A DNA stretch of 64,000 nt from Acidobacteriota bacterium (lineage in GTDB: Bacteria > Acidobacteriota > UBA890 > WLXD01), in NCBI GenBank assembly GCA_963666055.2, contig CAXWPH010000010.1, positions 1 to 64,000 of the forward strand. The letters run 5' to 3'. The notes beneath the pieces are model-generated. The model was not told where the DNA came from. It searched no databases and worked only from the letters and a program-made list of their open reading frames with translations. A program made the position numbers and the translations under genes. Shown piece by piece: positions 1,546 to 45,029 of this stretch. Numbering within the stretch: the stretch's first letter is position 1; the number at the start of each line of letters is the position of its first letter.

Positions 1546-1731
1546 TCATGAGCAGTAGTCCCTTGCCTTCGATCGAGGGTGTTCAGGATCAGAAGCGAAC
1601 TCGGCGGGCAGCACCTTGATGGCCACCTTGCGGCCCAGGCGCGTGTCCTGCGCCAGGTACACCTCGCCCATGCCGCCTTCACCGAGCTGCTCGGTGATCT
1701 CGTAGGGGCCTAGTTTGGTGCCGGGGTCCAT
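1546..1731 (-). pseudogene. Ser/Thr kinase N-terminal stub N1 (~50 kinase codons)
   Basis: [50 protein letters not shown], then unrelated sequence and a stop; near-identical to 5589 downward. Confidence 0.9.
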
Positions 1732-1798
1732 GGCGTTGCCGATACGGTGTAGGGGAGTGCCTGAAGCCTATCGCTGGGGCACGCGAGGGTCCACGGGA
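1732..1798 (-). promoter_or_regulatory. Kinase leader repeat L1 with sigma70-like promoter
   Basis: TGGACC (1793-1788), 17 bp, TAGGCT (1770-1765), 33 bp, ATG. Confidence 0.75.
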
Positions 1799-1931
1799 AG
1801 CACCTTCAGGGGCCTCGCCAGCATTAACCGGCCTGGTTTCCAGTTTGGGAAGGGAGAGTCCCATACATAGGGAGACGCATTACTCGACGCAGATCACGCT
1901 GCTTGCATGAGTCACTCACCGTCCCCCGCCG

Positions 1932-4472: not shown

Positions 4473-4523
4473 GTTCCCTTCGCGGTTTGCATCACAACGC
4501 TGGATCTATCTCCCAACGGTGAC

Positions 4524-4583
4524 GAAGCAGGGTGGGTGAGCGCCTGAAGCGTATCGTTAGGGCACGTAGGGGTCCACGGGAGA
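4524..4583 (-). promoter_or_regulatory. Kinase leader repeat L2, directly upstream of the amidase
   Basis: TGGACC (4576-4571), 17 bp, TACGCT (4553-4548); no kinase coding sequence follows. Confidence 0.7.
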
Positions 4584-4589
4584 GGCCGT

Positions 4590-4670
4590 TTCGCAAGACT
4601 CGGCTGAGCGCGCTACGGGTCCGTCGGCACGAGCCGGTTCAGGTCGTCGAACCAGTTGGTGACCAGCGTC
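4590..4670 (-). repeat. Kinase C-terminal tail plus trailer repeat T1
   Basis: Encodes TLVTNWFDDLNRLVPTDP*; followed by the conserved trailer (plus strand tcgcaagactcggctgagcgcg). Confidence 0.85.
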
Positions 4671-5589
4671 ACATGGCCACTGCCGGTCTGGCTGCTCTGG
4701 CCGGTGTACACTTCGTTTGTACCGCTGAAGTTCGATTCGTATGCCAAGAGCTCGCCATCGTGCGACCATCGGCATTCTGGTAGCGCCGCCCTCGCTCTTT
4801 CGCGAGGCACTTCTTCGACATCCACTGCAACTGAGCGGGCAGGTCAGGGTTGGTGTCGCCGAGCGGCTGCGGCTCCTCGTCGGCGATCTTATGCAGGATG
4901 TCCAACATGCTCTTGCCGGCGAACGGCTGCCGACCGCTGACCATCTCGTAGAGCACGCAGCCGAAGGCGAACAGGTCGGCCCGGTGATCGATCTTGTCGG
5001 AGCCCTCAACCTGCTCCGGGGCCATGTAGCCAGCCGTGCCCATCACCTGACCGGCCACCGTGCCCATCATCGTGGGTGACTGCGTTGCACCACCTGGTGA
5101 GCCCGCCCCCGCCACCTCGGTCAGCTTCGCCAGGCCGAAGTCGAGCACCTTGGCGTGGCCTTCCTTGGTGACGAAGATGTTCTCCGGCTTCAGATCGCGG
5201 TGGATGATTCCGGCGGCATGTGCTGCTGCCAGTGCTTCGGCGATCTCGGTGGCTAAGCCGAGCGCCTTCTTGAGCGGCAGCGCACCCTTGTCCAGCGGCT
5301 CCCGCAGCGTGTCTCCCTCCAGGTACTCCTGCACCATGAAGTGGGTGTCGCCTTCCGTGCCGATGTCGTGAACGACCGCGATGTGCGGGTGGTTCAGCGC
5401 GGCGGCGGCACGAGCCTCCTGCTCGAAGCGGGCGAGCCGCTCGGGGTCAGAGGCGAACTCGGCGGGCAGCACCTTGATGGCCACCTTGCGGCCCAGGCGC
5501 GTGTCCTGCGCCAGGTACACCTCTCCCATGCCGCCCGCGCCGAGCTGCTCGGTGATTTCGTAGGGACCTAGTTTGGTGCCGGGTTCCAT
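4669..5589 (-). pseudogene. Ser/Thr (Hanks) kinase with an intact catalytic domain and the TM/beta-propeller region internally deleted
   Basis: [32 protein letters not shown] are all present. After ~4765 it jumps to a TolB/PD40-like scrap (WSHDGELLAYESNFSGTNEVY) and the tail in another frame. Confidence 0.85.
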
Positions 5590-6076: not shown

Positions 6077-6130
6077 TGCGCCGAGCTGTTCGGTGATCTC
6101 GTAGGGGCCTAGTTTGGTGCCGGGTTCCAT
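6077..6130 (-). pseudogene. Kinase N-terminal stub (18 codons)
   Basis: [18 protein letters not shown], then unrelated sequence. Confidence 0.85.
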
Positions 6131-6197
6131 GGCGCTGCCAGACAGGGGTGGGTGAGCGCCTGAAGCCTATCGCCGGAGCGTGCGAGATCCAACGGGG
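6131..6197 (-). promoter_or_regulatory. Kinase leader repeat L4 (subtype B)
   Basis: TTGGAT (6192-6187), 17 bp, TAGGCT (6169-6164), 33 bp, ATG 6130. Confidence 0.7.
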
Positions 6198-6516
6198 CGG
6201 GTGTCGGCAGCGTTCCAGCATCCCCTTCGACGGATGAGGGTGCAGAATCGTGAAGGTCGGTTACTGACCACCCCCACGGCAGCGAGCGGACCGTTGACTG
6301 GGCCGCCACCCGTGACGCAACCGCGCCGATTTACCGAAAAGTAAACGGCGTAGAGCCCCCGCCGACGTTCCAGGGGCGTGGGGGGTCGAAACGAGCGACT
6401 CACGGCCCCTACGGGCGCTTGTAGGGACGCAGCGGCTGGCGCTACCGGGACGGAGCACTGTCTTGCAGTCGATGCTGTCTGATGGTGGCGCTGTCGAGGC
6501 TCACCCGAAGGGCGCG

Positions 6517-6577
6517 CTACCGGTCCGTCGGCACGAGCCGCTTCAGCTCGTCGAACCAGTTGGCGACCAGAACCATG
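6517..6577 (-). repeat. Kinase C-terminal tail repeat T2
   Basis: Encodes MVLVANWFDELKRLVPTDR*. Confidence 0.85.
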
Positions 6578-6633: not shown

Positions 6634-8115
6634 TCATTGCGTCTCGTTGAACAGAATCACGTACCGATCCGCATTGATACTCGCGTCCCACATCACGACA
6701 AGCAGATCGATTCTACCGTCCCCATTTGCATCGAGAGGAGTGATCTGGAATCCGATGTCGCCCGGGACCGCGAGCTGCTCGAACCGGCCCTTGCCGAGGT
6801 TCCTGAAGATCGTGCCCGACATACCGCGTTCGCCGGGCAGAACGATGTCCGGCCAGCCATCGTTGTCCAGATCGACGATGCTGATGCTTCCCCCGGTGTG
6901 GCCGTCGGCTTCGAGACTCTGGGGCAACCACTTCTTGGTCACGTCCCTGAACCGACCCTTGCCGCGGTTTTGCAGAAATTGCAGGTGCGGGTTCGGGGGA
7001 CCTCGACCACCCGACGTCTCCGTCGCCACGAGCAAGTCGGGGTCGCCATCCATGTCCAGGTCGGCGCACACGGGTGCGCTCCCGTACTCACTGTTGACGC
7101 CGTTGGGCGACAGCGGCAGCGTTATCTTCGAGTAGTTGAAGTTACCGAACCCGTCGTTCTCCAGAATCTGCGTGCGGCCCGCGAGCTTGGGGGCGTCAAA
7201 ATCGGAGGGGTGGGGGCTGCCGACGAGGTCCTGGTCACCGTCAGCGTCGACGTCACAGAACACTACCTTCGGCAATATGCAATCCTCGCTTCCGCGTGCA
7301 CACGGGCGAGAGTCCGGCGAGTTCGGAAACGGTCCGGGCAGCCTGTCGTTCTCGGCCCGAAAACCGCCGCTTCCATCGTTGATCAGTAGGCGCGGACCCA
7401 ACTCGGCGCGTTCGGGATCCGTTGATCGCCAGCTTCCTGGCCAGTTGGCATCCCAGATATCCAGGTCGCCGTCCCCGTCGACATCCGCTGCGGCAGCGTG
7501 GTGCGTGAAGGCCTGGTCATACCTGGGATAGGGCTCCCCGCGCGCGGTCCGATACCTACCGTCCGGCCTGGACAGCAGGAGCAGGTTGGCGGCCCCGGGG
7601 GCCGGGTCAGCCGGGTCCTTGCCGGTCTGCGGAAAGTAGATGTCGGGGACACCGTCGCCGTTGAAGTCGTGAATCATCGGTTGCTCATTACTCATTTGGT
7701 CAATCCTGCCCGGCTTCCCGGCCAACCACTTGCGCTTTCTCGCCCGGCTGAAGACGCCGGTCCCGTCGTTTTCCCAGACGGACAGCGCGGCCTTGTAGGC
7801 GACGCTCGGATCCGCGTAAAAGGTGACCTCATGTAGCAGAACATCGGTATCGCCGTCCTGGTCGATATCGATGACCTGCTGCCAGACACCTGGTTGATCC
7901 AAGGTGAGGCCGATACTGGTTCTGACCATTCGCCATTGCAGTGGTCCGCTGGCCACCCTGCGTGGCTGTGTCTGGTCGGTTGATGCGAGAGGGCCTGGGG
8001 CTGCCGACATCCCCGCGCTCGCGAGAACGGGAGCAAGTATCGCGACGGTGATCCAACCGAGGTGCACTCTGCGCCGTGGATTACTCGAAGCGAGGCCAGC
8101 AGGGCGGAGCTTCAT
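6634..8115 (-). CDS. Secreted FG-GAP/VCBS repeat protein
   Basis: Signal peptide; repeated DxDxDGDxD motifs ([36 protein letters not shown]). Confidence 0.85.
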
Positions 8116-8294
8116 GGTCCTCCTAGAGAACTTGATCGAGTAAGCTGCCTAGGACCGCTCGCGAAGTCGTCCGATAGTACCTTGATGGCGATATCACGAT
8201 CCAGCGTCGTGTCGCGTGCTCGGTACACCTCGCCCATCCCGCCTGCACCGAGCGGGGCGAGGATCTCGTAGTGGCCGAGGGTCTTGCCGATCAT
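8112..8294 (-). pseudogene. Ser/Thr kinase N-terminal stub (different paralog)
   Basis: [48 protein letters not shown]; its stop overlaps the ATG of the FG-GAP gene (ATGA). Confidence 0.85.
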
Positions 8295-8304
8295 CCTCTT
8301 CAAC

Positions 8305-10836
8305 TCACTGGATGTAGCCAAGTGCTCGAAGAGTCCGTAGCTGCTCGGAAGTCAGCGGCGACTCCTCGCCCGGCGTGAACTGCTGCGCCAGCAACTGGTG
8401 CGCCTCGAACTGCGCCTCAAGGAAAGCGGTGTAGTGCTCGACTAGGTCAGGCCGCTCCTCATGCAGGCTGCTCAAGGCGTGCGGGTCGTTCCACAGGTCG
8501 TAGAGCAGCAGGGGGACGGGCCGGCGCTCCTCTTCCGGGGTCTCCGGGTGCGGGTTTATCTCGAGCGATGCCCCCCAACGCCCATCGACCACCTCGATGC
8601 GACCGCGGAACTCGCCCGTGTCGCCATCCACCCAGAACTCGTCGAGGATGACGGGGCGCGGCTCCCACCCTGCCTCCCCCAGCAGCAACGGCGCCAGGGA
8701 CTGTCCCTGCATCACTTCCGGCATCGACAGATCCGCCAGGTCTAGGATGGTCGGCAGCAGGTCGATCATGGAGACGGGCTGGCTGAACCGATGGCCTGGA
8801 GCAATGCGCCCCGGCCAGACCACGATCAGCGGGATGCGGGTCGTGCCGGACCTGACCATGGGAGCCCCAGGAAGCCGATGGAACAAAGGCCCGCGGGGCG
8901 GTAGGGAATCACGCATGAGGAGGCCGTAGTCCGCCGAGCCCGCCCCGACGCCGTGATCCGCCGCGACGATCAGGAGGGTGTGCTCCCACTCGCCGGCTGC
9001 CTTGAGCCGGGCCATGAGCCGGCCAAGCTGGTAGTCCTGGTGCGCCATCGTTTCGTCGTGCAGGTCCCGTTGGGCGGTGACGAACGGCACCCGGCTGATG
9101 CCGGCCTGCTCAAACCCCTTTCCCCCCCGCCAGAAGACCCCTGATGCCTGGAGGAGGCGGTGCCATTCCTCGACGATCTGGCGGCGGTTAGGGCTGATGA
9201 AGAGGCCCGCGAAAGGAGGGAGCGGCGTGTGCGACCTATGCACGTCGGTCGTCTGAAAATGCACCCAGTACGGCTCGCTGGGGTACGCCTCCCGCCATGC
9301 CCAGAAGTTCTCATGGAGCTCCACGGAGGACTTGGACTCGGGCGTGACCCCGGCTTCTCGGAACACATCGACGCCACGTTCGAGGCTGCTCAACCTCCCA
9401 GCGTTCCCGTTGGATGTGAACACGGCAGTCTGGTAGCCGGCCCGGTGCATGTGCTGAGCCATGGTCGGCGCATTGTCCGGGATCACATTGAACCCGTTCT
9501 TGAAACCGCCCAGCACGCTGTGTTGCAACGAGGTCATGAAGGAGGCCGTGGAGGGTCGGGTCCAGCTGGAATTGCTGTACGCACGCTCGAAGATCGCACC
9601 CTCGGCGGCCAGCCGCTCGAGGTTCGGCGTCGTGCGACGATTGTAGCCGTAGACGCTCATGTAATCGGCACCACCGCCGTCGATGATGTAGAAGATGATG
9701 TTCGGCTTGTCGGTGGTGCGCGCGCCGCTGATTGTCGGCGCAGCCCACAAAGCGACCCTCCCTTCGGCTTCGGACTCGGCCTCCAAGCCGAGCGTCACCG
9801 TCTGGCCCGCAAAGTCGGCCAGATCCACCGAACGCTGGCCCCAGCCCTTCTTGACCGCATAGCGCTCCTCGAACAGCGCGGTCGGTTCACCACCCCCGGC
9901 ACCATCAGGGATCGCCGTGACCCGGAAGGTCACGGGCACGTCCTCACGCAAGACACCCATGGCGAAGTCGAGCCGGCCCGCCTCCGGGATCTTCACCCGA
10001 TACTCCACGCGCCCCGGCGTGTGCGTATACAGAGCCTGCCGATAGATGCGGTTGCGGATTTCAGTGCGCGAGGCCGCGCCCGCGTTGGCGTAGTTAGCCA
10101 CCTTCGGGATCAGCGTGATGGAAAGAATGTCGATGCTGGCCACATCAGTGGCCGCGAACAACAGGCCGATCTCCCGAATCGATCCCTCCGGTGGCGGATC
10201 CCCCCAAAAGTAATCCAGCCGCAGCTGGTAGGTCTGCACCGTACCGTCGCTTACAACAGGCGCCTCATCGCCTCCGTGCTCAAATGGATTGGGGCCGCTT
10301 GCATCCGTACCGGTCCCCTCTCGCCTGTTGAAGCCGATGAAGAAGTCGCTGACATCATCGGAGGTGCGAGCACGCACCACGAGGTGCGCCAGATCCTCGT
10401 AGTTCCAATCGGGCACCTCGAGAACCAGGCCGCCCCTTGGGTTGCCGTTCGGATTCCTCGTACCGTCCGTTAGCGTGACGCGCAGCGCGTCGTCGAGCTG
10501 CGTGACCTCGACCGGATCGTTCGTGGGGTTCCACGGGACTACCGGCTTCCAGTCCTCCTGGGGCTCGTCGAAGTGCCATTCCATGGCGTCCGGAGCGTCT
10601 GCGGGGACCTCGGAGCCCACGATGGTGGCCACGTCGAAGTGTTCCTCAAGGTGGAGGGGAACCTCGGCGGTCAGCGGTGACGGGCCGGGGTCAAGCCCTG
10701 TGCAACCCGTCGTTAGGAGGATCGCGAGGAGCAGCGCTGCAAGCGAGTGGCACCAGTCGAGACGAACCTCTCCCATGCCGCCAGCACCGAGCTGCTCGGT
10801 GATTTCGTAGGGGCCTAGTTTGGTGCCGGGTTCCAT
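8305..10836 (-). CDS. Sulfatase-like lipoprotein whose first 24 residues are kinase-derived
   Basis: [32 protein letters not shown] and LRALGYIQ motifs; N-terminus [24 protein letters not shown] followed by a hydrophobic stretch and lipobox LTTGC. Confidence 0.85.
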
Positions 10837-10903
10837 GGCGCTTCCACAGGGATGTGGGGGAACGCCGGAAGCCTATCGCCGGGGCGGGCGAGGGTCCACG
10901 GAG
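10837..10903 (-). promoter_or_regulatory. Kinase leader repeat L5
   Basis: TGGACC (10898-10893), 17 bp, TAGGCT (10875-10870), 33 bp, ATG 10836. Confidence 0.75.
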
Positions 10904-11145
10904 AGGCACGGCCCCCGCAACGGTGCCTAGTGGTAGAGCCGGGCTGTTGTGCCGTCTCGGGGACGCACCCTGCGCCGCGTTCATCGGTGTCCCACGCATA
11001 CACCTCGTTGTCGCCGTCGCCGTCGATCAATCGAGGGCCTCCTGCCGCGGGGGCAATGATCCCGCAATGAACTCTGCGTTGTCGATGGTCTGGTCTTGTT
11101 CTACCCTCCGGCCGGCAGGATCAGGTCCCAGCACCAGGAGAACCT

Positions 11146-13113: not shown

Positions 13114-13154
13114 GGGAAGCCCGGCCCCCGACTAGGCCAATACGAGACGCTTCC

Positions 13155-13210
13155 GAAGCAGGGTGAGCGCCCTGAAGCCTATCGCCGGGGCACGCGAGGG
13201 TCCACGGGAG
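13155..13210 (-). promoter_or_regulatory. Kinase leader repeat L6 (no ATG; faces the 3' end of the PQQ gene)
   Basis: TGGACC (13204-13199), 17 bp, TAGGCT (13181-13176). Confidence 0.7.
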
Positions 13211-13385
13211 ACGCCGGAATGCCGCCGCTCAGCGCCTTTCTAACGTCCGCCGGCACCCAGCCCACCGAAGTGCCTGTCAGGTTGTCGGCGGCCCGTAGCG
13301 GGGCCTTCTCGGGGCTCCTAAGCAGACATATGACTGGTGTCTGCCCCGGCATTGCGGACGAGCGGAATCGAGGGTCGCTGGGTGG

Positions 13386-13535
13386 CTCGCGAGACTCCGC
13401 TGGCGCCGCTACGGGTCCGTCGGCACGGGTCGCTTCAGTTCGTCGAACCAGTTGAGGACGACGTGCAGCTCGGTTTCCCGTCCCGGATTGGTCTCAGCGG
13501 CCCTGATCATGACGAACCGTTCGCCGTCAGGAGCG
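13386..13535 (-). repeat. Kinase C-terminal tail plus trailer repeat T3
   Basis: Encodes APDGERFVMIRAAETNPGRETELHVVLNWFDELKRPVPTDP*; trailer ctcgcgagactccgctggcgccg. Confidence 0.85.
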
Positions 13536-15281: not shown

Positions 15282-15400
15282 CATTCGCCCAGCGGTGATG
15301 TGATCGGACGACCTCGGTGCCGGGTTGTATCCCTACCTGTCCGTCGGCGGCACGAGCCGCTTCAGCTCGTCGAACCAGTTGGTGACGAACGCCACCGTTA
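15282..15400 (-). repeat. Kinase tail T4 immediately followed by a degenerate kinase start
   Basis: VAFVTNWFDELKRLVPPTDR* (stop 15333-15335), then ATA CAA CCC GGC ACC GAG GTC...ATCACC..CTGGGCGAA resembling MEPGTK..IT..LGE. Confidence 0.7.
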
Positions 15401-18028: not shown

Positions 18029-18110
18029 CTCGCAAGCTGCGGCTGACGCCGCTACGGGTCCGTCGACACGAGCCGCTCCAACTCGTCGAACCAGTGGGTG
18101 GCCAGCGTCG
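18029..18110 (-). repeat. Kinase C-terminal tail plus trailer repeat T5
   Basis: Encodes PTLATHWFDELERLVSTDP*; trailer ctcgcaagctgcggctgacgccg. Confidence 0.8.
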
Positions 18111-19845: not shown

Positions 19846-19912
19846 GATGGCGCTACCAGAGGGGGGGTGAGCGCCTGAAGCCTATCGCCAGAGCGTGCGA
19901 GATCCAACGGAG
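19846..19912 (-). promoter_or_regulatory. Kinase leader repeat L7 (subtype B) upstream of the serine hydrolase
   Basis: TTGGAT (19907-19902), 17 bp, TAGGCT (19884-19879); the kinase ATG context is altered to gcgccATC. Confidence 0.7.
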
Positions 19913-20101
19913 GCACCGGTCAGGAGCCTCCCCAGCGCAACGGGCCTGCCCCCCGATCCGGGAACGGAGGGAGGTCCTATATATAGGAGGGCACCTTACC
20001 CGACGCACACACGTCGGTTCCATATGTCACTCGCCGACCCCCAGACCGACCCCCAAAACGGTTGGCTTGTGAGTGACTGGCTGTAAGTTATTGAATCTAA
20101 A

Positions 20102-20152
20102 GAGCCGGCGCGCGGATTCGAACCGCGGACCTGCTGATTACGTCAGCTGCTC
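20102..20152 (-). pseudogene. tRNA-Thr(CGT) 3'-half fragment (att remnant)
   Basis: Reverse complement gcagctgacgtaatcagcaggtccgcggttcgaatccgcgcgccggctc; no acceptor 5' strand; followed by ttcaataacttacag and CCGACCCCCA x2. Confidence 0.8.
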
Positions 20153-20255
20153 CGATCGGCACTGTGAGGCCGCCTTCATCCGACCGATCTGGGATGTACG
20201 GACGGTCAATCACAATCAATCGTTAGATCCCTGTTAGATGCCGGGCTCAGACGCA

Positions 20256-20555: not shown

Positions 20556-20624
20556 GGGCCGCTCAGTTGGCAGAGCACCGGCCTTTTAAGCCGGGTGTCC
20601 AGGGTTCGATCCCCTGACGGCCCA
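20556..20624 (+). tRNA. tRNA-Lys(TTT), probably pseudo (about 4 nt missing at the acceptor/D junction)
   Basis: gggccg|ctcagttggcagagcaccggccttttaagccgggtgtccagggttcgatcccctgacggccca; expected gggccgTTAGctcag. Confidence 0.75.
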
Positions 20625-20662
20625 CACTTCAACCCGGCTTCCGCGCAGCGGCGTTTCAGGGT

Positions 20663-20736
<74 letters not shown>

Positions 20737-21030
20737 CTACCTTTTTTTGATCATCCGAGGGAGCTTCCGTAACTCTTCCGTAACTTCGTCCTGAGACCAG
20801 CGCCCGAGTACGATGGCAAGCTGCGTCACGACAAGGGCGGACTACAGCCGTCCTTTCCACACTCGCCCCTGGCCTTCCCCTCGGAAATCAACGACCTATA
20901 GCGTTAGATTGTTTACGAGGATTCCGAGCAGATAGCTCGGTTCAGGGACAAGAAAGGGACAATTAGGGGACAGTCCGCACGTCTCAAGTCGGGTCGGATG
21001 ACGGCAGCCCCACGGGGACGCTAGGCGCTG

Positions 21031-21079
21031 GCTGATTCGTAATCAGCAGGTCCGCGGTTCGAATCCGCGCGCCGGCTCA
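21031..21079 (+). pseudogene. tRNA-Thr(CGT) 3'-half fragment (att remnant), inverted relative to the 20102 copy
   Basis: gctgattcgtaatcagcaggtccgcggttcgaatccgcgcgccggctca; no 5' half; AT-rich tail tgtaaacccttgttattcaata. Confidence 0.8.
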
Positions 21080-22911: not shown

Positions 22912-25149
22912 CTAGTGGCCTTCCACTACAAACAGCGGCATCAGCCGGGCCGCCTGGCCATCGGCGGTCGTATCCACTACTTGCAGCTCGACCAGATACT
23001 CGCCGGGGTCGAGATACGGCAGCGGCAAAAGGCCGCCGTATACGCTCGGGCCCTCGGGCCGCAATGCGTAGGCCGGTACCTCCGCGATGGTGTTCCGTGT
23101 TGCGTGATGGAAGATCGAGGCTGAAACGTGGGGCCGCGTCGCGCCGCTAACTTGAACGCTCGCGAAGATCTGGATGCCCTCGGATACGCCCTGGTCTAGC
23201 AGGGGTCTGAACGCGGCATCGGCCTCCAATACGCCGAGCATCGGATCCGCCATCGTCCACCCGTCGCTGGACGGAACCTGCACCTGCAGCCTCGACGTGC
23301 CGAATCGGTCACCGCCGTCTTCAGCGATCAGCAGCCGGATGTCGTAGATTCCTGGCTCGACTGACCACTCCGTCGTGTAGAGGAGGTGCTGGAACGGTGC
23401 AACCGGTGCGTACCCCGCCAGATCGGTGTGTGGCAGAACCGTCGCGTGAGTCTCGCCGCTGATCTCGCCCGCACGATCCAACGCGATGGCATGCACTTGG
23501 AAGTACGGGATGCCGAGCACGTCGACCAGCTCCTCGCGGTTATCCGCGGCGGGACCGATCCCCTCGAAGGCGGGCGCCCAGGTACCGGCGATCGTCTCCG
23601 CGGGCCGCGGCAACCCGACAACCAGTAGGATCTTGGGCGAGCCGTCGGGCTCAAAGCGGTGGAACGCGGCGGCGGGCACCGGGCGTCCCATGACTGAGCC
23701 CGGCAGCGCCAAGGCTGCGGCCACCTTGCGCGCCCTGAGCTCCGAATCCGGCAGCTCTCGATAGCCTGACCGAGCTCGAACCTCCACCTCCGGGTAGCTA
23801 ACCTGCACCTCGATCTCGTGGTACTCGCCATCCTCGTGTGGCGCCGGTGGCTCATAGAAGATCAAGTAGAATTGCGTCGAGTCGTTGTACTGCTCCTCGA
23901 ACGCTCGGTCGAGATCGCTCCAGCCGATGAACGACCGGCCGCCGGTCTTCGCAGCCAGGTCCACGAGCGGTACGGTGAGATCGCGATAGGCTGGCCGCAC
24001 GTGGCGTCGCAGAGCCGTGTTGAGCACACCAGAGCCGATGGCGGCACTCTTGCCGAGGCTGTTGAGCTCCGAGGTCGGGCGTGGATCGACCGTGTAAATG
24101 CTCACGTTGCCGGTGTTCGCGGTTTCGTACACCTCGTCCATCAAGTCGAGGACGCGCTGGTTGAGTGCCAACCTCGACAGAGTCGAAGTTCCCATCGGAG
24201 CGTCAACCGCCTCACGCACTGCTGTCGCGAAAGCCGAGTAGGGTCCGCCCTCGGTGATCATCGCACCGGAGGAGATCCACACCAGGGCAGTGCGGCCTTC
24301 CATTGCCGACAAGGCGTTGATGAAGTGAAGAAGAGTCCGAAGTGTCTGCTCGGTGCGCCGGCGCTCGCGCTCGCCGTCTAACCTGGCCTTTCGGTCGAGG
24401 TTGTCGAGAAGCTGGAGCACCATGACCGGGGTCAGCGCGTCGATCGCCCACTGCATCATTGGCTGATACTCCCGCTCCATGCGGCTGAAGATAGACGCGG
24501 TCGTCAGCCCTGCCTCCGCCACCGCCGCCGCCGCGTTACGAAGCACTTCACGATCGGTCGTCAGTGGGGCCATCTCCTGCACTGTGCCGGTGTTGTCGAT
24601 CAGGAACACGCTCCGCGGCACTTCCAGCGCACCCTCCCCTTCGAAGAGACTCTCGAGAGAGTTGGATAGCCGCGGCTTGTTCCTTCGATCCAGGCTCGGC
24701 AAGTCGACCAGGTAGACCACAGCCCCGAGACTTGCAGCGCTTCGCCGATTGGGTGCAGGCTCCGCCGGCACCGCGGGCACATCCTCGCGCGCCGTGACTG
24801 TTTCGTCGTGAGAGGCCACGTTGGTGACCTCTGCTCTTGGCAGGCTGACGTACTGGACGTTCAAGATCTCCTGCTCGACCCCGTCCTCGAAGACCCGGAA
24901 GTCGTCCGCCTTCAAGTCGTCGATGAAGTTGCCGTCCCCGTCGGTAACGATGGCGTCGACGCGCACGCGCCTGACCGCGGATCGAAACGTCGGTACTTGA
25001 GCCGGCAGCGCCTCCTGAGCCAAGGTCCCCGACGCGCCTGTTCTCCCGCTATTGCCCGCCACCGCGACGGCGCTCGAAACCGGTTGCCCGGTAACGTTCA
25101 ACGCCAGGAGGAAACCGACATACCGAATCGCGCGCTCGCGCCCTCTCAC
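22912..25149 (-). CDS. Acidobacterial VWFA-related domain protein
   Basis: PTFRSAVRRVRVDAIVTDGDGNFIDDLKADDFRVFEDGVEQEI, GRTALVWISSG, IYTVDPR, LAAKTGG, YLIFYEP..HEIEV..VRARSGY; GTG start inferred. Confidence 0.85.
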   Translation of the reverse strand: MRGRERAIRYVGFLLALNVTGQPVSSAVAVAGNSGRTGASGTLAQEALPAQVPTFRSAVRRVRVDAIVTDGDGNFIDDLKADDFRVFEDGVEQEILNVQYVSLPRAEVTNVASHDETVTAREDVPAVPAEPAPNRRSAASLGAVVYLVDLPSLDRRNKPRLSNSLESLFEGEGALEVPRSVFLIDNTGTVQEMAPLTTDREVLRNAAAAVAEAGLTTASIFSRMEREYQPMMQWAIDALTPVMVLQLLDNLDRKARLDGERERRRTEQTLRTLLHFINALSAMEGRTALVWISSGAMITEGGPYSAFATAVREAVDAPMGTSTLSRLALNQRVLDLMDEVYETANTGNVSIYTVDPRPTSELNSLGKSAAIGSGVLNTALRRHVRPAYRDLTVPLVDLAAKTGGRSFIGWSDLDRAFEEQYNDSTQFYLIFYEPPAPHEDGEYHEIEVQVSYPEVEVRARSGYRELPDSELRARKVAAALALPGSVMGRPVPAAAFHRFEPDGSPKILLVVGLPRPAETIAGTWAPAFEGIGPAADNREELVDVLGIPYFQVHAIALDRAGEISGETHATVLPHTDLAGYAPVAPFQHLLYTTEWSVEPGIYDIRLLIAEDGGDRFGTSRLQVQVPSSDGWTMADPMLGVLEADAAFRPLLDQGVSEGIQIFASVQVSGATRPHVSASIFHHATRNTIAEVPAYALRPEGPSVYGGLLPLPYLDPGEYLVELQVVDTTADGQAARLMPLFVVEGH

Positions 25150-25362
25150 CGAAGATCTCCTGTGCCCACGGCCACGCCACACTTGGTCCCCATTTGGCGC
25201 AGCAACTCGCTGGCGCACATATAGCCAGGGGTTCCGGCCACCGAGCCGCAGGGGTAGGTGCTGGAGCCACAGATGGACACGTTCTCGAACTCCCCGAACT
25301 GGTAAAAGCACCGTTTCGCATCGTCAGCATATTGCCTGTCGAAGTAAATTTGCCCCCCGAGG

Positions 25363-25753
25363 TGACCCTGCCCCACTTTTCCGGACACTTAGTTAAGATC
25401 CATTGTCGTAGTGGTAGTAGCGGCTGTGGGAGCTGTTAGCAACGCGGAGCGTTGTCCGAGCGACGGTGGAAATCGGGAATCGATTTCCACGAGCGCATCA
25501 GCTTCCACAGCTGATTGACGGCGCTTGCCTGGCCGCCGCATTGCCGCCTCGAACTGAGCCGGACTCTGGTCTCCGATCGAGGTGTGCATGCGAGCCCGGT
25601 TGTAGAACACTTCGATGTAGTCGAACAAATCGGCTCGGGCCGCCGCACGGGAACTGAAGCAGCCACCGAGTTCGAACTTCAAGGTAGAGAAGAAACTCTC
25701 CATCGGCGCGTTATCCTAGCAGTCTCCTTTCCTGCTCATGCTGATGGTGAAGC
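25363..25753 (-). mobile_element. IS3-family 3' fragment with terminal IR
   Basis: SMSRKGDC*DNAPMESFFSTLKFE..FDYIEVFYNRARMHTSIG; IR TGACCCTGCCCCACTTTTCCGGACAC at 25363. Confidence 0.8.
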
Positions 25754-26630
25754 TGACGTGCTCCCCGAAAACTGAGCCAGTGCGAGTGTGAGTTCTCCGG
25801 GCTAGATATAGGGCCGGGAGGGCTACATGAGGAAGAGGCGGTACAGCGAAGAGCAGATCATCAGGATCCTGCGCCAGGTGGAGGCCGGCGAGGCGGTCAA
25901 GGATGTGTGCCGGGAGCATGGCTTCAGCGAGGGCACTTACTATCGGTGGAAGGCGAAGTACGGGGGGCTGGATATCAGTGAGGCGCGCCGGCTCAAGGAG
26001 CTGGAGCGTGACAAACCGGCGGCTCAAGAATGCCGTGGCGGATCTGACGCTGGACAACCAGGCGCGCAAGGAAGTTGTGTCGCGAAAATGGTGACGCCCG
26101 CGATGCGGCGGCAAGCAGCGGCATGGCTGCAGCAGCGCTTGGGGCTGAGCGAGCGCCGGGCGTGCCGGATCGTGGGTGTGAACCGATCGACGTGCCGGTA
26201 TCGAGCTCGACGGCAACAAGCCGGACCGTTGCTCGAGCGGATGCGTGAGCTGGCGGCCGAGAGGCCACGGTTCGGCTATCGCCGACTGCACGTGATGGTG
26301 CGACGCGAAGGCTGGCAGGTGAACCACAAGCGCTTGTACCGGCTGTATCAACGAGAAGGGCTGGCTGTGCGGCGCCGCAAGCGTAAGCGCGTGGCATCGA
26401 TGCAGCGGGTGCCGATGATCACGCCACAGGCAGCCACCGACCGGTGGTCGATGGACTTCATGAGCGACTCGCTGGCCACCGGCAGGTCGTTCCGAACGCT
26501 CAACGTGCTGGATGAGTACAGTCGCGAGTGCCTGGCGATCGAGGTCGACACGGGCGCACGAAGTCAGCCAGGCGACAGCGCCGGGCCGCGAGTTCCGATC
26601 TCTCGGAAGAGCTTCGCCAGCCGCGGGCTG

Positions 26631-27077
26631 CTAGTGCAGGGTGGTGTCGTCGTTGTCATCGACACGGCCTTCCAGGATACGCGCCATGGCCTCTAATTGG
26701 TCACGACTGAGACCTGCGGCCGTTGCCGCGCGCACGATCAACGCGCGCTCTCCGTCCGTGATCTTGTGGTGCACCTCACGGCGTTGCGTGTTGACCCATC
26801 TGTCGGGCCCGCGATTCGTCAACCAGAAAATGAGCGCCGGCACATTGCCCTCTAGCGCCTTGCGCCTGAGTGAGGCTTCGACTTCCTCGTCGGCTAGCAT
26901 CTCCGCATCTTCAACCGCAGTGGCAAACTCGGGCTCATCCCGCATCGCCCGGTATGTTGTGCTCCGGCCAACGCCCACTGCCTCCGCTGCGGCCCCACGA
27001 CGCATGCCCTTCGCCAGCAGCTCGAGATAGCGCTGGCGTCTCCGAGGGCTGAATTTGCGCTTTTTAGGGCGTGTCAT
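26631..27077 (-). CDS. Phage terminase small subunit-like protein
   Basis: N-terminal HTH (AAAEAVGVGRSTTY) and VEASLRRKALEGNVPALIFWLTNRGPDRW. Confidence 0.7.
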   Translation of the reverse strand: MTRPKKRKFSPRRRQRYLELLAKGMRRGAAAEAVGVGRSTTYRAMRDEPEFATAVEDAEMLADEEVEASLRRKALEGNVPALIFWLTNRGPDRWVNTQRREVHHKITDGERALIVRAATAAGLSRDQLEAMARILEGRVDDNDDTTLH

Positions 27078-27204
27078 TTGTGTCTTCCGGGTCTTCCGGT
27101 GCTGGTAGCAAAGCGCTCCCGCAGCCACACACCGGCAACAGAGTGTCCCTTTTTGAGTACTGGGTACGCTGAAGGTCGGCATGCGTACATGGTATCCGCT
27201 AGGA

Positions 27205-27415
27205 GAACCCTGGTCGATCACGTTGAGGGGCACCAAGAACCATTCGCGCGGGAGTACGCGGTTGCCGAAGCGATCCTTGATCCCGCCCGGTAGACCTGGC
27301 GCAGTACCACGTCGAGGCGCCCGCGCCACGCCTTGTACCGCTCGCAGAACCGGCTGTACCCATACGCGTCCGGGGTGCGCCGAATCTTGCGCATGGACAA
27401 CCTCTTCTGCGACAC
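27205..27415 (-). pseudogene. Fused scraps of IS21 istA and a T5orf172/GIY-YIG nuclease C-terminus
   Basis: SQKRLSMRKIR..YGYSRFCERYKAWRGRLDVVLRQVYRAG (IstA-like); IKDRFGNRVLPREWFLVPLNVIDQ. Confidence 0.55.
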
Positions 27416-28263
27416 TGTCTTTCCTCCTCGCTGCAAAGGATCTTTCGCGAGGATCGAAGAATGGCCCGCTACTTTAGGTCATCCAGCACCGCTACCCGCT
27501 TCCTTTAATCAAGATATATTAGTAGATATAGGATCCCCGACTGCGGCGGCACAGCGAGGGCTTCAAGCCTACTTTTCGCCTATGTCTCGGTGCTGTCTCG
27601 ATGCCTTGGCCAATGGCCACACGGTCCGTGAGCGCTCGGTTCACGGGTCCCGCTGCGAGTGGGATAGCTCAGTCGGGGATCCGGAGCCACTTCCCCTTTC
27701 GTTTGTGGATCTTCCTCTTGATCAGGACCTCGTCAGCATCCTTCACGCCCACATCGCGGCTCTCCTGGATCCGCATCTGCGACTTGGCGCCAGCGGGGTA
27801 GGACGGGCGCCCGCGTCGCGCGGGTGTTGGTCCGGGTCGTCGAGCAACGCGGTAAACGCAAGGAGATCCTGATCGACAACGGCCCCGAGTTCACGAGCCG
27901 GGCGTTGGACGCGTGGGCCTACGAGATGGGCGTAGAGGTACGCTTCATCCGGCCTGGCAAGCCCGTGGACAACGCCTTCATCGAGAGCTTCAATGGCTCG
28001 TTCCGACACGAGTGCCTCAACCAAGCACTGGTTCACGGATCTCGAGGACGCCCGGTGCAAGGTCCAGTACTGGCGTCGAGACTACAACTACGTCAGGCCG
28101 CACAGCTCACTCGACGACCTGACTCCACACGAGTTCGCCGCGGCAGGACAACTCCAGCAGCCTCCGGCTGCTTCCGTTGCCCCGCCGGTTGGCGAACCGA
28201 TAACACCCCTATGTTCGGTCCGAGACTCTCACTTCCAGTGGACCAGAAAAGGGGGGCAGGTCA

Positions 28264-28642
28264 ACAGAGGCCATCGCCGCCAGCTTGGTCATGCTCACCG
28301 GAGGCGAGATTCGTCTTGCGCCAATGGCGGCGGTGATGATCCACGAGGCGCGGAGGAACGTTGATCGCTGCGCCCCCAAAGGCGTTCCAGGTGACGTTGG
28401 ATTTCCTGACTCGATTCAACGCCGAAACCGTTGTGCCGCTGTACATGCGGCGAATGAACGTGTCCGAGGCCGAGTTGCATCAGATGCTGCAGCAAGAGCG
28501 CTCATTCACGGCGACCGAGGCCGTTGAGGTCGGGCTTGCCGACAGTGTGATCGAGATCGAAGACGACAACGACACCGACGGCAACGAGGCGCGAGTATTC
28601 GCGCGCCGAAACCTGAGACTGGCCGCGCTTGCCGGCACGTAA
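28264..28642 (+). pseudogene. Phage ClpP-type prohead protease, 5'-truncated by IS3
   Basis: AASLVMLTGGEIRLAPMAAVMIHEA..ELHQMLQQERSFTATEAVEVGLADSVI. Confidence 0.7.
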
Positions 28643-31229: not shown

Positions 31230-31525
31230 GTGTCGCCGTTCAAATCCGACGTGTCGGTTCCCATCGTGCCAATGGCCGTCGAGACGTCGGCGAAGCGCTT
31301 CTGTCTCGAGTACCTGGGCTCTGAAATCGACTGGGAGCACCGATTCGGCGATACATCTCCCCTGTACATGCAGGTCCGACAGGGTGGATCCGTGCTCCAT
31401 CTCGACGGTCACGCGGGTGCTGAAGCTCCAAGGGGACGGTGCGCGTGACGTTGCAGGGTCTCGATCACTACCGCCAGCTGCTGTGTTCGAGGGCTCCCGG
31501 TGCCAACGCCCCTCGCTGGTCAGAC
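31230..31525 (+). pseudogene. Glyoxalase/VOC-family fragment, copy 1 of a ~280 bp direct repeat
   Basis: DWEHRFGDTSPLYMQVRQGGSVLHL; 31247-31525 matches 33808-34087. Confidence 0.75.
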
Positions 31526-31641
31526 GACCGCTTCAAAGCTGTGTGCACGATCAACGACCAAGGCTCAGAACTGGAACGCGTTTACAGATACCCCTCGGAC
31601 TTGACCACAGGCGCGCTCAACAAATCTAGGACGTCACCTCG

Positions 31642-32490
31642 ATGCCTCGAAAGATTGGACGCAACGAACCTTGCCCCTGCGGGAGCGGAAAAAAATACAA
31701 GAAGTGCTGCGTCGTTGAGGACGAAAAGAACACGCGAGGCTTGAGGGCCGAACATCCGGCAGGTGGGGGAGGGGTCGCCCGGGCGCTCTCTTGGCTGTCC
31801 GCGCGGTATTGCGTCGAAAGCATGGAAGCGCTCGAGAGGCTCGCGCAACCTCCCTCAGCACTTGTCGATGCTGCGACGGGAGATCCGATCCTTCTAACGA
31901 ACATCCACTATCGTGTCCGGGACTGGGCGCCCATCGAGGCTGCCCTCGAAGCGGATGCTCGAATCGAGCCGACTGGCGAGAGTAACTGGACCTGCTTCGA
32001 ATCGACATCAGCAGACGAGCCGCGGCGCATCGTGTGGACGGTCAGCCGGGAGGCGCAACAAGAAAGAAGAGCGCATCGAAGTGTATGCTCAAACCGCAGA
32101 GCGAGCCGCCGAGGCTGCATGCTGGTTTGCAGACCACGCAGAGGATGCGCTCGAACTGATTACGCGCGAGTTCATCGATCCAGCGCATCTGTGGAAAGAC
32201 CGTCCATCACGAGAACATAGTCCAGAGCCTTTTCCGAGCCCGCTTGATGACATGTCCCCTGATGAAGCCACCGAGTCCAGTCAATAAATCCACGAGCACG
32301 TGTACCGTAATTGGCACAATGAGCCTATCCCGGCGCTCGCGAACCAGACCCCCGAGCAAGCCATGCGTTCCAAGTCAGGCCGACGCGACATCGTTCGGCT
32401 CATGAAGAGCTATGATATCTAGGAGGAGCGCCGCGCGGAAACAGAAGATCGACCCGCGATCGACTACGGTTTTCTTTGCAAGAGGCTAGG
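31642..32490 (+). pseudogene. SEC-C motif protein, frameshifted
   Basis: [20 protein letters not shown]; broken continuation ending YRNWHNEPIPALANQTPEQAM. Confidence 0.7.
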
Positions 32491-32683
32491 AATGTCTCGG
32501 CGCGAGGAGTCGGGCTAGATATGCCTGCCGACGGGCAATCGCGCCAGCCGACGCAGCCGCGCCGCCGGACAGCGCAGCGATGTCGGCCGACCGTGGAAAG
32601 AGCGTGACTTCCTAGGCGTCCTGCGCCCGGCACGGTGGAGACGGAATCGTCATGTGTAGCACGTCTGTGGAGTGCAAATGGCC

Positions 32684-33797
32684 AATGAACGACACGGCCG
32701 CCATCAACGTTGCCGTGCGAAGAATCCCATGTGCCCTGCTGTTCGCTTTGAATGCTGTGGGAGCCGCTGGCTGCGTCTCGAACCCCACCTTGGAGATGTT
32801 CCAGGCCGATGATCCTGCATGCTACGACCGCTCCGTCCAATCCCAAACTGCGGTGGTGGATACTCATCTCCACTTCCGGCCGTTTGGAGGTCCTGCGATC
32901 CCGTTCGAGGAACTGGTCTCCTATCTCGAGGAGACCGGCGTCGTGTTCGCCAACATCTATGGCGTTGGCCAGACGCTGCCCGTGACTACGTCCTGCACCT
33001 ATTACTTGGACTGTCCCGGTACGCCGGTGACACCGACGTTGAAGAATGACTTTCTCAATGCCGCCAACACCATCATGAACGCGCCCGCTGGGATCCATCT
33101 GACGCTCTCGATGAGCTTCCCGGACTTGTCGCGCCCAGAGACGATCCTCCCCAGGATGCAACTGCTGAACGAGGAATACCCCAGCGCATTCGCCTGGATG
33201 GGCGAAATCAACCTGGTGAAACAAGCGCTGTTCGGCAACGGGAGGGCGCCGGTCCCCCTGGCGACGCTACTCAGGTGGGCGCCTTTCATGGAGGCGCTGC
33301 GGGAACGAGATATCCCGCTGGCGATTCACGCCGATTTGGGCAACGACGAGGAACCGACACGACACCTGCCGCTCATGGAGGAAGTGCTGCGCTTGTATCC
33401 GGACAACGCAATCGTTTGGGTGCACATGGGCCTGTCCCGGGAACTGGTCAACATGAACGCCGTCCAGCATATTCGAATCATGAGTGCGCTGCTGGATCGT
33501 TATTCGAAGCTGCTGTTGGATATCTCCTGGCGGGTGCTCGACGATGCCTACTTCTCAGACCCGGACAACCGGACGCTCTATGCGTCGTTTCTGAATGAGT
33601 ACTCGGAGCGAATCCTGCCGGGAACGGACTTCTTGGCATCGAGTGACAAAGACATCGCCGTCTATCGCACCGAGCTGCAGATCACCAGTCGGATCCTGCG
33701 TGACTTGAACGACACGGCCTTCCGCAACATCGCCTTGGGTCAGAACTATTTCCGCTTGTTGGATCTGGACTACACCGCGCCGCCGGTATGTCAATGA
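32684..33797 (+). CDS. Amidohydrolase-superfamily protein, probably exported
   Basis: DTHLHF, MGEINL, IHAD, WVHMG, DISW, PGTDF metal-ligand pattern; start uncertain. Confidence 0.8.
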
Positions 33798-34170
33798 AAC
33801 CCGAATTCGACGTGTCGGTTCCCGTCGTGCCGATGACCGACGAGACGTCGGCGAAGCGCTTCTAATCTCGAGTACCTGGGCATGAAATCGACTGGGAGCA
33901 CCGATTTAGCGATACATCGCCCCTGTACATGCAGGTCCGACAGGGTGGATCCGTAATCCATCTCGACGGTCACACGGGCGCTGAAGCTCCAAGGGCACGG
34001 TGCGTGTGACGGTGCAGGGTCTCGATCACTACCGCCAGCTGCTGTGTTCGAGGGCTCCCGGTGCCAACGCCCCCTCGCTGGTTAGACCACGGGGTACGAA
34101 TCGGGAAATGCCGATCGAGGACCCGTCGGGGAACCTGCTGATCTTCGCGGAGCCGGACTCCGACGACTAG
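33794..34170 (+). pseudogene. Glyoxalase/VOC-family gene, copy 2 (full length but with a stop and frameshifts)
   Basis: MKPEFDVSVPVV..TAA at ~33864..EMPIEDPSGNLLIFAEP. Confidence 0.75.
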
Positions 34171-34396
34171 CGAGCACCGGTCTGTTCATCAAGACCGAGC
34201 CGTCAACCGAGCACGATTGATCCTGATGTGGGACTGGACTTGTGCTAGCAATCGAGCGTCACGATGAGTGCCCTGGGTGGCCGGCCGGGACCTCGATTCC
34301 GGGCGGGCTCGGGGCGATGGAGCGCCCGCGAGGGGCAGGCGCTACGGCGATGCAGGCCACATGTCCACGAAAACCCAACCTCGTAGGGCCGGTGAG

Positions 34397-34613
34397 ATGA
34401 TCGACTTGGAGGAGCGGATCGCGGCGCTGCAGGGGATGGACTTGCCCACGCTCCGTGATGAATGGCGTCGTCCTTCTTAGCCCTCCTGCCCGACTCCACC
34501 TCCTGCAGAACCCGGATGATCTGCTCTTCGCTGAATCGACTCTTGCGCATCCGCTCCTCCGTAGCTTGACCAGTCTCGCATTTCCACTGTGCCGAGTTAC
34601 GGGGAGCACGTCA
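34397..34613. mobile_element. DUF2924-like N-terminus (+) abutting an IS3 left end (-)
   Basis: MIDLEERIAALQGMDLPTLRDEWRR; minus strand IRL TGACGTGCTCCCCG at 34613 and MRKSRFSEEQIIRVLQEVE. Confidence 0.6.
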
Positions 34614-34673
34614 GATTAGGCCTCGGATCGGCGGGATCGAGGGACGATCTCAGTTTACACTTAGCCCTGACGC

Positions 34674-35047
34674 TCATCTCGGCATATACTTAGCTGTGAC
34701 GCTCGAAGATGCTGAACTGATTGTCTTGCCGTAGGTGCCGCGCCCGCGCTTGCCCTTGATCCGACGCGCCCCGAAGAAGCTCTCGCCCACCTCGACGACC
34801 CCGAGCGGGCGCTGCGCTTCACAGGCAAGCACAATGCGTTGCCGCAAGCCCCGGTACAGCCGGTTCACAGTGTTGCGGTTCCGACCGCTCAGCGCCGCCG
34901 TCTGAAGGGCTGTGAGATCGGCCGCGAGGCAGCGCACGATCTCGCGGGTCTGGGCCTCGGACATCCTTGCACGCTTCCCGCACCTGTTTTTCATTGTCAT
35001 GCTTAGCCTTATGCCTCATCCAGAGACTCTCAGCTAGGCAAGACCCT
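34674..35047 (-). mobile_element. IS1595-family transposase fragment
   Basis: ADLTALQTAALSGRNRNTVNRLY..VVEVGESFFGARRIKGKRGRG. Confidence 0.75.
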
Positions 35048-35084
35048 TTCTTTATTGGAGTTCCCCATGGCCGCGTTCCGGCCT

Positions 35085-35380
35085 TCACCCATCTAACCGG
35101 AAGCCCCAGTCGTAGCTGATGCGCACGTAGTAGTAAGCGCCGTTAAAGCCGAAAGGCGAAGACTGACCGTATCGGATTCCTTGGCCAGCAGCGCCCAGCA
35201 GGTTGACGTCCGGGTACGTGTTCAGAATGTTCTGGGCCCCCGTGGAGAAGGTGAGCTCGTCGTTGATAGGTACGTTGAACACGACATCGAGAAGCACCTT
35301 GCCCCGGTACAACTGGTACAGGTAGGACAGGTCGGGGTTGCCGAGCGTTGCCGTTGCCCAGGTTCTAGCGTCTTCCTGGT
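35085..35380 (-). pseudogene. TonB-dependent receptor C-terminal fragment
   Basis: GKVLLDV..GAQNILNTYPD..SPFGFNGAYYYVRISYDW, joined in frame to a truncated IS3 orfB. Confidence 0.7.
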
Positions 35381-35409
35381 CCCAGTACTGGCCGTTTCGA
35401 GTGCGCTGC

Positions 35410-36500: not shown

Positions 36501-36542
36501 TATGACCCACGCAAGGGCACGCTATCGTCTCGACAGCTGGCC

Positions 36543-45013: not shown

Positions 45014-45029
45014 TGTTACCTAAGCTTAA

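Follow-up and report, generated by a model that had tools for sequence, protein, structure and literature searches.

An Enzyme Gene in Kinase Clothing: In-Frame Fusion of a Sulfatase-Like Gene to a Ser/Thr Kinase Start in an Acidobacteriota Bacterium, with Predicted Kinase-Driven Expression

INTRODUCTION

How an enzyme gene came to begin with the first codons of a protein kinase, and whether it could be expressed from them, is the question raised by an open reading frame (ORF) of an Acidobacteriota bacterium (GenBank assembly GCA_963666055.2). The ORF lies at 8305 to 10836 on the minus strand of the 64,000-nucleotide stretch analyzed here (contig CAXWPH010000010.1, positions 1 to 64,000; the window), begins with ATG, and encodes 843 amino acids in which a kinase N terminus precedes a signal-like stretch, a lipobox, and a sulfatase domain. 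An earlier note, made from the sequence alone, had proposed that the enzyme gene lost its own start and now uses the promoter and start codon of a kinase gene. Here we report that the sulfatase-like gene sits between kinase 5′ and 3′ ends. We predict that it is expressed from kinase signals and exported as a lipoprotein, and homologous recombination likely spread it and swapped its front end, a reading to which we assign a probability of roughly 0.7.

RESULTS

The fusion and its junction

The 843-residue ORF runs without a stop codon or frame break from a kinase start through a hydrophobic stretch and the lipobox-like sequence LTTGC (Cys45) into a Pfam Sulfatase domain. As the earlier note had said, its first 24 residues were identical to those of a kinase gene at 4669 to 5589 (minus strand) before the switch to signal and lipobox. 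Similarity to kinase DNA extended up to 10766, and 10765 was the first differing base. The same note was correct that no ATG lies between the junction at 10765 and Cys45, and no GTG or TTG was found there either. A second ATG, which it overlooked, is present at codon 21, within the kinase part (10776 to 10774). The 843-residue protein had no Pfam kinase match and lacked the VAIK, HRD, and DFG motifs, only 24 kinase residues being present; what had been called a P-loop is the glycine-rich loop of a kinase without the VAIK lysine. The features of the fusion are as follows.

10839 to 10908, minus strand: kinase-family upstream repeat with 92 copies in the genome, a predicted sigma70-type promoter.
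10765 to 10836, minus strand: kinase start, codons 1 to 24 (beta-1 and glycine-rich loop), with an ATG at codon 21, by sequence comparison.
10702 to 10764, minus strand: cargo-derived signal with short n-region, h-region, and lipobox-like LTTGC (Cys45 at 10704 to 10702), by sequence and homologues.
8305 to 10701, minus strand: predicted mature sulfatase-like hydrolase, with an N-terminal region without Pfam match, PF00884 (about 9705 to 8731), WTRPST, and the stop codon at 8307 to 8305.
8295 to 8306, minus strand: 12-nucleotide link overlapping the stop codon, which encodes ELKR, a sequence also found in the C-terminal tail of the kinases, and contains a purine-rich, ribosome-site-like stretch for the next start.

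The earlier note had named reads across 10765 as a check. Logan contigs of runs X1 and X2, which carry two study codes, do cross that position, covering 10608 to 10795 with 0 differences; they have 30 letters on the kinase side against the 31 of our bridging rule, and one of the two runs possibly derives from the source sample. A related fused allele was bridged by a 2,452-nucleotide contig of run X3 (10613 to 10840, 37 differences), and the identical 843-residue protein is on record in a second assembly, on a 3.19-Mb contig that exceeds in length every contig of the present one. We conclude that the ORF is a real in-frame chimera and that an artefact is very unlikely.

Recurrence behind different kinase starts

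The 24-residue start was shared by 13 of the 111 kinase starts of the genome, the fusion included. At the DNA level, its closest match was on another contig (1 difference in 71 nucleotides), and it differed from 10 kinases at 2 to 4 of 71 nucleotides, the mean among the kinases themselves being 3.0. A start as near to the kinase genes as these are to each other is what recombination of the window copy with kinase loci would produce. In contrast to the near-identical start DNA, the paralogous fused genes were 69 to 77% identical. A recent, one-off local capture from the kinase at 5589 was rejected, as 13 starts share the residues and the fusion recurs in other genomes; that kinase is cut off after the kinase domain and is therefore a broken gene, not a special donor.

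The junction type of the window was also found on long contigs of the same genome, at C15:414881 and C15:525517, where the kinase starts differ from that of the window and from each other. P0121/P0374 share this junction type and have a second type of kinase start. A second junction type occurred in G002 (same genus, three copies), G005 (same family), and G020 (another family of the order), as well as in four of seven metagenome pattern matches, the remaining three being plain kinases; each copy of the second type had its own kinase start. Moreover, P0112 and P0371 showed 0 mismatches over 799 residues and had unrelated starts. If kinase-derived flanks recombine with about 100 loci, one junction is expected to turn up behind various starts and on more than one enzyme body.

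Among 129 family proteins of at least 500 residues, 10 (five 90% clusters, query included) scored at least 42 bits on the kinase-start profile, and 6 further proteins had starts resembling other kinase lineages (5 to 26 bits). A close homologue (E 1e-200) was present in 8 of 301 genomes of the phylum, with three candidates scored per genome, and in G039 and G258, which represent further families, the enzyme had its own Met and a truncated kinase just upstream. When 1.84 billion representatives were searched with the first 30 residues, 220 matches were returned, of which the 150 listed were mostly short fragments and kinases. A search with residues 1 to 46 gave 95 matches, and only the three sulfatase-like ones were without kinase domains. 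The non-kinase proteins with this start that the earlier note had thought worth seeking were the sulfatase-like ones and, among the 150 matches listed, one further fusion of a start to a lipoprotein signal, P0234; these word-based searches did not sample other cargo.

In trees of the enzyme (118 to 121 sequences), start-bearing proteins were scattered and spanned the root in all three partitions, and signal types did not track the enzyme body tree. The trees omit two short loci, four proteins of more than 900 residues, and the proteins in which the PLHL anchor is missing. The family is therefore a mosaic in which origins cannot be counted, and a single origin on the enzyme tree found no support in this rooting pattern. 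We conclude that the fusion is an old and recurrent event.

Several N termini of the family stood apart. P0016, P0377, P0029, P0381, P0383, and P0384 are homologues with starts like those of other kinase lineages and other junctions; P0016 and P0377 retain their own Met, P0384 has only Met1 ahead of the lipobox, and P0381 is labelled Nitrospirales by one source. The signals MVGES, MTGES, and MIDES of P0014, P0045, P0049, and P0069 may be kinase starts shortened by internal deletion, a point that the tree did not settle. P0050, P0094, and P0111 are sulfatase-like homologues with an HRRSLWQVL-like stretch in their N termini, which we take to be the start of another expanded protein family that may be a further start donor.

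The enzyme and its 3′ flank

Pfam Sulfatase (PF00884) matched residues 378 to 702 of the fusion protein (E 2e-35), and the nearest solved structures were S1 sulfatases (E 2e-18), both of which liken the enzyme to sulfatase family S1. Formylglycine sulfatases of that family carry the motif (C/S)xPxR. TRPST of the fusion protein aligned to SGPSR of 5g2v, such that Thr of its WTxPS motif occupies the formylglycine position and Arg is missing four residues further along; WTxP was found in 99 of 121 proteins. The enzyme further differs from family S1 in that it reached none of the NCBIfam equivalog cut-offs. Since (C/S)xPxR is absent, the enzyme is by that rule not a formylglycine sulfatase, and the name sulfatase given to it earlier holds for the domain match and not for the catalytic motif. 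We infer that the enzyme is a threonine-nucleophile hydrolase of the alkaline phosphatase superfamily.

Kinase-derived sequence was also found downstream of the enzyme gene. A 12-nucleotide link reading E(L/F)(K/R)R and overlapped by the stop codon led into the next kinase start after six sulfatase ends (the window, three others in this genome, G000, and two in G002), and a kinase tail remnant lay no more than about 30 nucleotides past the stop codon in C15:414881, G005, and G020. Such a 3′ flank was absent at nine loci without a kinase start (L004 to L006, L008 to L012, and L015); L020 has a tail. Because kinase-derived sequence lies on the 3′ side too, the enzyme gene sits in a kinase gene shell. 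A block composed of a kinase 3′ end, a start, a 219-residue cargo gene, and a tail occurred at two separate loci with 91% identity, as would be expected if such units are copied. At C2:362018 (minus strand) of G000, a kinase start is joined in frame straight to a kinase tail, an empty shell.

Expression signals and start choice

Upstream of the fusion, a predicted promoter was recognized as TGGACC (10898 to 10893), a 17-nucleotide spacer, and TAGGCT (10875 to 10870), followed by GGAAG (10845 to 10841) and ATG. The upstream repeat family has TGGACC or TTGGAT, 17 nucleotides, and TAGGCT. Positions T1, A2, and T6 of the predicted −10 hexamer were invariant in 84 of 84 anchored copies and the third and fourth bases varied in 9 and 7, an invariance that is inflated by the anchoring and accompanied by adjoining bases that are likewise well kept. 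A 22-nucleotide promoter pattern scanned against the genome collection found four loci only. RNA runs X15, X17, and X19 contained contigs of related genes on both sides of the junction, none among those listed crossing it, and such contigs show neither start sites nor expression levels.

As the cargo has no start codon after the junction, any start that keeps the signal peptide is kinase derived, either Met1 or Met21. In the C15:414881 paralogue, codon 1 is the sole ATG, GTG, or TTG before the lipobox Cys (Cys45), so that gene must use the kinase ATG if it is expressed as a lipoprotein. The proposal that the cargo uses the promoter and start of a kinase thus stands insofar as the start is kinase derived and the upstream repeat is promoter-like, and falls short in considering one of two candidate start codons. 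On these sequence features, we predict that transcription of the fusion begins at the kinase promoter and that the product is an exported lipoprotein.

The h-region and lipobox Cys of a Sec/SPII lipoprotein were present, and homologues had a signal and Cys at the same place, ahead of PLHLE. Most homologues carried ordinary signals, a comparison that the earlier note had suggested: in 104 without a kinase start, the median Cys position was 24 and charges ranged from −1 to +6. Other start-bearing proteins had signal charges of 0 to +3. From Met1, the signal of the window copy has 44 residues and a net charge of −3, and from Met21, 24 residues and −1; a short, positively charged n-region was not found in the window copy, where three amino acid changes relative to a paralogue include the loss of an Arg and the gain of an Asp. 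A functional signal of 46 residues is described for BKC-1 (PMC8262980). Given the length, charge, and acidity rank of the window-copy signal, efficient export is not assured, and the earlier statement that the mature protein is unaffected is unproven.

One alternative of the same origin, possible but on balance rather unlikely, is that the window copy is translated mainly from the kinase Met21, such that an ordinary 24-residue signal is made and codons 1 to 20 are only a leader. A start at Met21 would put the Cys at position 25, close to the family median, pairing with the anti-Shine-Dalgarno sequence was better at Met21 (−5.4 kcal/mol) than at Met1 (−3.3 kcal/mol), and Met21 was kept in 8 of the 10 strongly scoring start-bearing proteins. 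Met21 belongs to the kinase motif, however, and so travels with every start swap. Moreover, it is lost in C15:525517 and in C15:414881 (P0370/P0046), the latter having no other start before Cys45, and the stretch upstream of Met1 was conserved in 52 aligned repeats.

Other cargo and the reading frame

Six kinase starts of the genome continued in frame as long ORFs unrelated to kinases, namely two sulfatase-like genes and genes for a lipoprotein of 560 residues, a PF00144 serine hydrolase, a cyclase-family protein, and a zinc dehydrogenase. For the serine hydrolase, the G001 orthologue begins at a native Met preceded by a native ribosome site, and it is exactly at this Met that the fusion in the present genome is joined. 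For the lipoprotein, G001 has lost the kinase ATG and kept a ribosome site and TTG, the codon corresponding to which is CTG in this genome, with the kinase ATG in frame. Matches to a 530- to 590-residue lipoprotein family (L039 to L058, in G000 to G004) without Pfam or NCBIfam match occurred three to six times in each of five same-genus genomes and in none of 36 others searched.

The six in-frame cases belong to 55 starts without a catalytic core; of the others, 14 were followed by cargo that was out of frame or lay beyond a stop, 4 belonged to frameshifted kinases, 1 to a kinase with an internal stop, and 1 to a start-to-tail join, and for 29 a crude ORF filter, with which all cargo was called, gave no cargo. 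Most trapped cargo retained its own start. Of the 6 fused cargo proteins, 5 had a hydrophobic N-terminal stretch, as did 9 of the 13 unfused ones, such that enrichment of export signals was not evident. At 32 loci of relatives, 26 of 46 starts were without a catalytic core, and three led into signal-bearing cargo.

These counts bear on an improbable second alternative, in which the fusion is neutral debris, its frame being a one-in-three accident and the window copy being poorly exported or decaying. An in-frame share not above chance, the net charge of −3 with its altered n-region, and the many broken kinase genes of the arrays would agree with debris. Against it, the 819-codon enzyme body of the window copy is intact, the identical protein is found in a second assembly, the frame from start to lipobox is kept in seven of eight copies from a genome search that did not require it, and fusions persist across genera and two families. 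The earlier note had regarded the in-frame fusion as the most direct sign of productive capture; the frame by itself is weak evidence, and recurrence and persistence across genomes serve better.

A number of observations weigh against kinase-driven expression and recombinational spread and are gathered here. In-frame cargo (6 of 20 cargo-adjacent starts) was not above the one-third expected by frame alone. Protein-database matches are in frame by construction. One of the three fused copies of this genome is broken by a 19-nucleotide deletion in the signal, and each of the three G002 copies has a frameshift further along, one of them being on record in an intact form as well. The ratio of nonsynonymous to synonymous substitution rates (dN/dS) of the enzyme body against three homologues (0.26 to 0.36) reflects, at such distances, long-term constraint only and is silent on recent selection. 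The window-copy signal was the most acidic of 111 measured, anti-Shine-Dalgarno pairing was weak at both candidate starts, and a consensus promoter scan did not report the site upstream of the fusion. Finally, the tree was made with FastTree only, midpoint rooted and without a one-clade test, and start swaps known solely from short-read assemblies could be chimeric contigs.

Kinase ends in arrays

Full-length members of the donor family are Ser/Thr kinases with a TolB/PD40 beta-propeller (PF00069 and PF07676). Of the 111 kinase starts, which were found with a profile built from 43 kinase N termini, 56 had the catalytic HRD motif in frame and 55 did not; the upstream repeat had 92 copies and the kinase C-terminal tail 93, and non-kinase DNA preceded 48 of the 93 tails. 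Starts were clustered: 73 of 111 had another start no more than 5 kb away, whereas 300 random draws gave a mean of 20 and a maximum of 37. In 79 of 84 cases, a start and its nearest tail were on one strand. The first 22.6 kb of the window form such an array, in which promoter repeats, starts, and tails alternate with genes for an amidase, an FG-GAP protein, the sulfatase-like enzyme, a TonB-dependent receptor, and a serine hydrolase. Its remaining kinase-derived features, all on the minus strand, are the following.

1582 to 1803, minus strand: promoter repeat and 50-codon kinase start.
4517 to 4586, minus strand: promoter repeat without kinase start, upstream of the amidase gene.
4591 to 4670, minus strand: kinase C-terminal tail remnant (NWFD..L.RLVPTDP), by repeat family D6 and tail hidden Markov model (HMM).
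4669 to 5589, minus strand: Ser/Thr kinase gene truncated after the kinase domain and joined to the tail remnant.
6077 to 6202, minus strand: promoter repeat and 18-codon kinase start.
6495 to 6574, minus strand: kinase tail remnant after the FG-GAP cargo gene, by repeat family and tail HMM.
8136 to 8294, minus strand: second-type kinase start (about 53 codons), truncated, followed by the FG-GAP cargo gene (6634 to 8115).
13145 to 13214, minus strand: promoter repeat without kinase start.
13387 to 13466, minus strand: kinase tail remnant, by repeat family and tail HMM.
15314 to 15393, minus strand: kinase tail remnant after the TonB-dependent receptor gene, by repeat family, Pfam, and tail HMM.
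18030 to 18109, minus strand: kinase tail remnant, by repeat family and tail HMM.
19848 to 19917, minus strand: promoter repeat without kinase start, upstream of the PF00144 serine hydrolase gene.

It is very unlikely that a dedicated, integron-like site-specific system inserts cargo at kinase ends. The arrays are cassette-like, and some adjoin tRNA or tyrosine recombinase genes (for example, C15:521484 by the C15:525517 copy), but the junctions of 55 starts were spread over 38 codon positions, codons 18 to 27 accounting for 19 of the 55, in a survey that short kinase starts escape, and this spread speaks against a site-specific recombinase. Furthermore, no recombinase was present among the array ORFs scanned in the window at 1 to 22,600, and many arrays have none nearby. 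An assembly chimera of a kinase repeat and a sulfatase gene is hardly credible, for although the start belongs to a repeat of more than 100 copies, other assembly oddities occur (the mirror duplicate on C8), and the exact bridging contigs fall one letter short on the kinase side, the exact junction stands in two runs of two study codes, a related allele is bridged, and the same junction type recurs at two further loci of this genome as well as in other assemblies.

Further observations were made on the arrays and their surroundings. A cluster of tRNA-Lys, -Glu, and -Thr genes occurred twice at 99.8% identity (window 20561 to 21078 and G000 C7:18709 to 19226), each with a different kinase and cargo array beside it, and could indicate duplication, strain variants, or contamination. 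On C8 of G000, 31344 to 40035 and 56464 to 65226 hold a mirror-image repeat of a kinase array with identical features, possibly an assembly artefact. At 20084 to 20207 of the window, the 3′ end of tRNA-Thr is partially copied in inverted orientation and further pieces of tRNA genes are present, as is typical where islands integrate. Beyond the tRNA cluster, a broken tyrosine recombinase gene was found, together with several intact or fragmentary transposase genes of the insertion sequence (IS) type (25364 to 28336, 35085 to 36194, 45026 to 46210, and 50446 to 51327), and a 390-bp piece at about 25364 to 25754 has many 95% copies in G002 and G003. The 799-residue ORF at 22912 to 25311 (minus strand) has no Pfam match and several paralogues per same-genus genome.

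DISCUSSION

The pattern observed here comprises the fusion itself, its recurrence, swapped starts, kinase-derived flanks on both sides, and arrays of kinase ends around varied cargo. It likely arose in three steps. First, an illegitimate or homology-facilitated event, presumably a rare insertion, would have placed the cargo in a kinase gene and removed the start of the cargo. Second, the kinase-derived flanks would then allow recombination with any of about 100 kinase loci, a mechanism suggested by the pattern of starts and bodies. Third, the 24 kinase residues are predicted to be a passive extension of the signal n-region that would be removed with the signal at Cys45 and have no kinase function. 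The fusion is likely one outcome of a general cargo-trapping process in kinase arrays. A ComEC-family gene is present in the genome, as it is in 10 of 14 control genomes.

A broader model is offered only tentatively. In marine-sediment-type Acidobacteriota, a hyper-expanded Ser/Thr kinase family may act as a genome-wide, recombinase-free system of capture and expression, in which promoter and first codons would be a universal adaptor and the last codons a closing handle. Exported enzymes tagged in this way might move among loci, among species, and even across phyla, coming in each new host under a kinase promoter found there, with the borrowed peptide discarded together with the signal.

If kinase ends work in this way, uncultured bacteria with huge paralogue families would have a route by which foreign genes are taken up and expressed at once without integrases, the paralogue ends providing landing sites and expression signals alike. 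This suggests a second, genetic reason for the persistence of kinase families and their many apparent pseudogenes, and shows how new signal peptides can arise with a borrowed peptide hidden in the part that is cut off. For annotation, short kinase-like N termini on sulfatases and hydrolases are real and imply no kinase activity.

Among known families, Hanks-type Ser/Thr kinases with TolB/PD40 domains are the donors of start, promoter, and tail, and the fusion differs from them in holding 24 residues only. No description of a kinase-based cassette system or of this kinase expansion was found in the open literature, most subscription papers and supplements being outside that scope.

The closest parallel is with the minimal mobile elements of Neisseria, in which variable genes move by homologous recombination in conserved flanks with no dedicated mobility gene (PMC3787668). 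Here too, variable cargo (sulfatase-like, FG-GAP, serine hydrolase, cyclase, amidase, and other genes) lies between the same starts, promoters, and tails. Swapped starts on identical bodies and mosaic trees would fit recombination in the flanks. The Neisseria flanks are specific, intact neighbouring genes at one locus, whereas here the 111 starts and 93 tails that serve as flanks are cut-down ends of paralogues, which supply the promoter and start codon; because such ends exist in about 100 copies, a unit could land at many loci.

In the tandem paralogue cluster lpl of Staphylococcus aureus, recombination at conserved stretches shuffles gene parts such that the evolutionary unit is not the ORF (PMC2568036); lpl shuffles the parts of one family, whereas here unrelated enzymes lie between kinase gene ends. 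Orphan Rhs modules, which have no start of their own, become expressed when they recombine onto a conserved 5′ part (PMC3967940), and arrays of type VI secretion system (T6SS) effectors grow through homology-facilitated illegitimate recombination, in which one end of an anchored insertion is illegitimate (PMC5361080). The Rhs and T6SS modules are toxin tips with immunity genes that are delivered by the parent protein, whereas the cargo here is a whole enzyme with its own export signal that takes only a promoter, a start, and a 20- to 37-residue stub. Toxins with cognate immunity and a delivery protein, as in Rhs and contact-dependent inhibition (CDI) systems, have as counterparts here hydrolases or receptors and a kinase donor. 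Unlike in integrons, junctions are spread along the starts and the repeats are coding remnants; tyrosine recombinases had 29 matches genome-wide, no search being aimed at attC or IntI. Judged by these comparisons, the kinase-end system resembles known recombination-driven gene capture and is a member of none of the systems compared.

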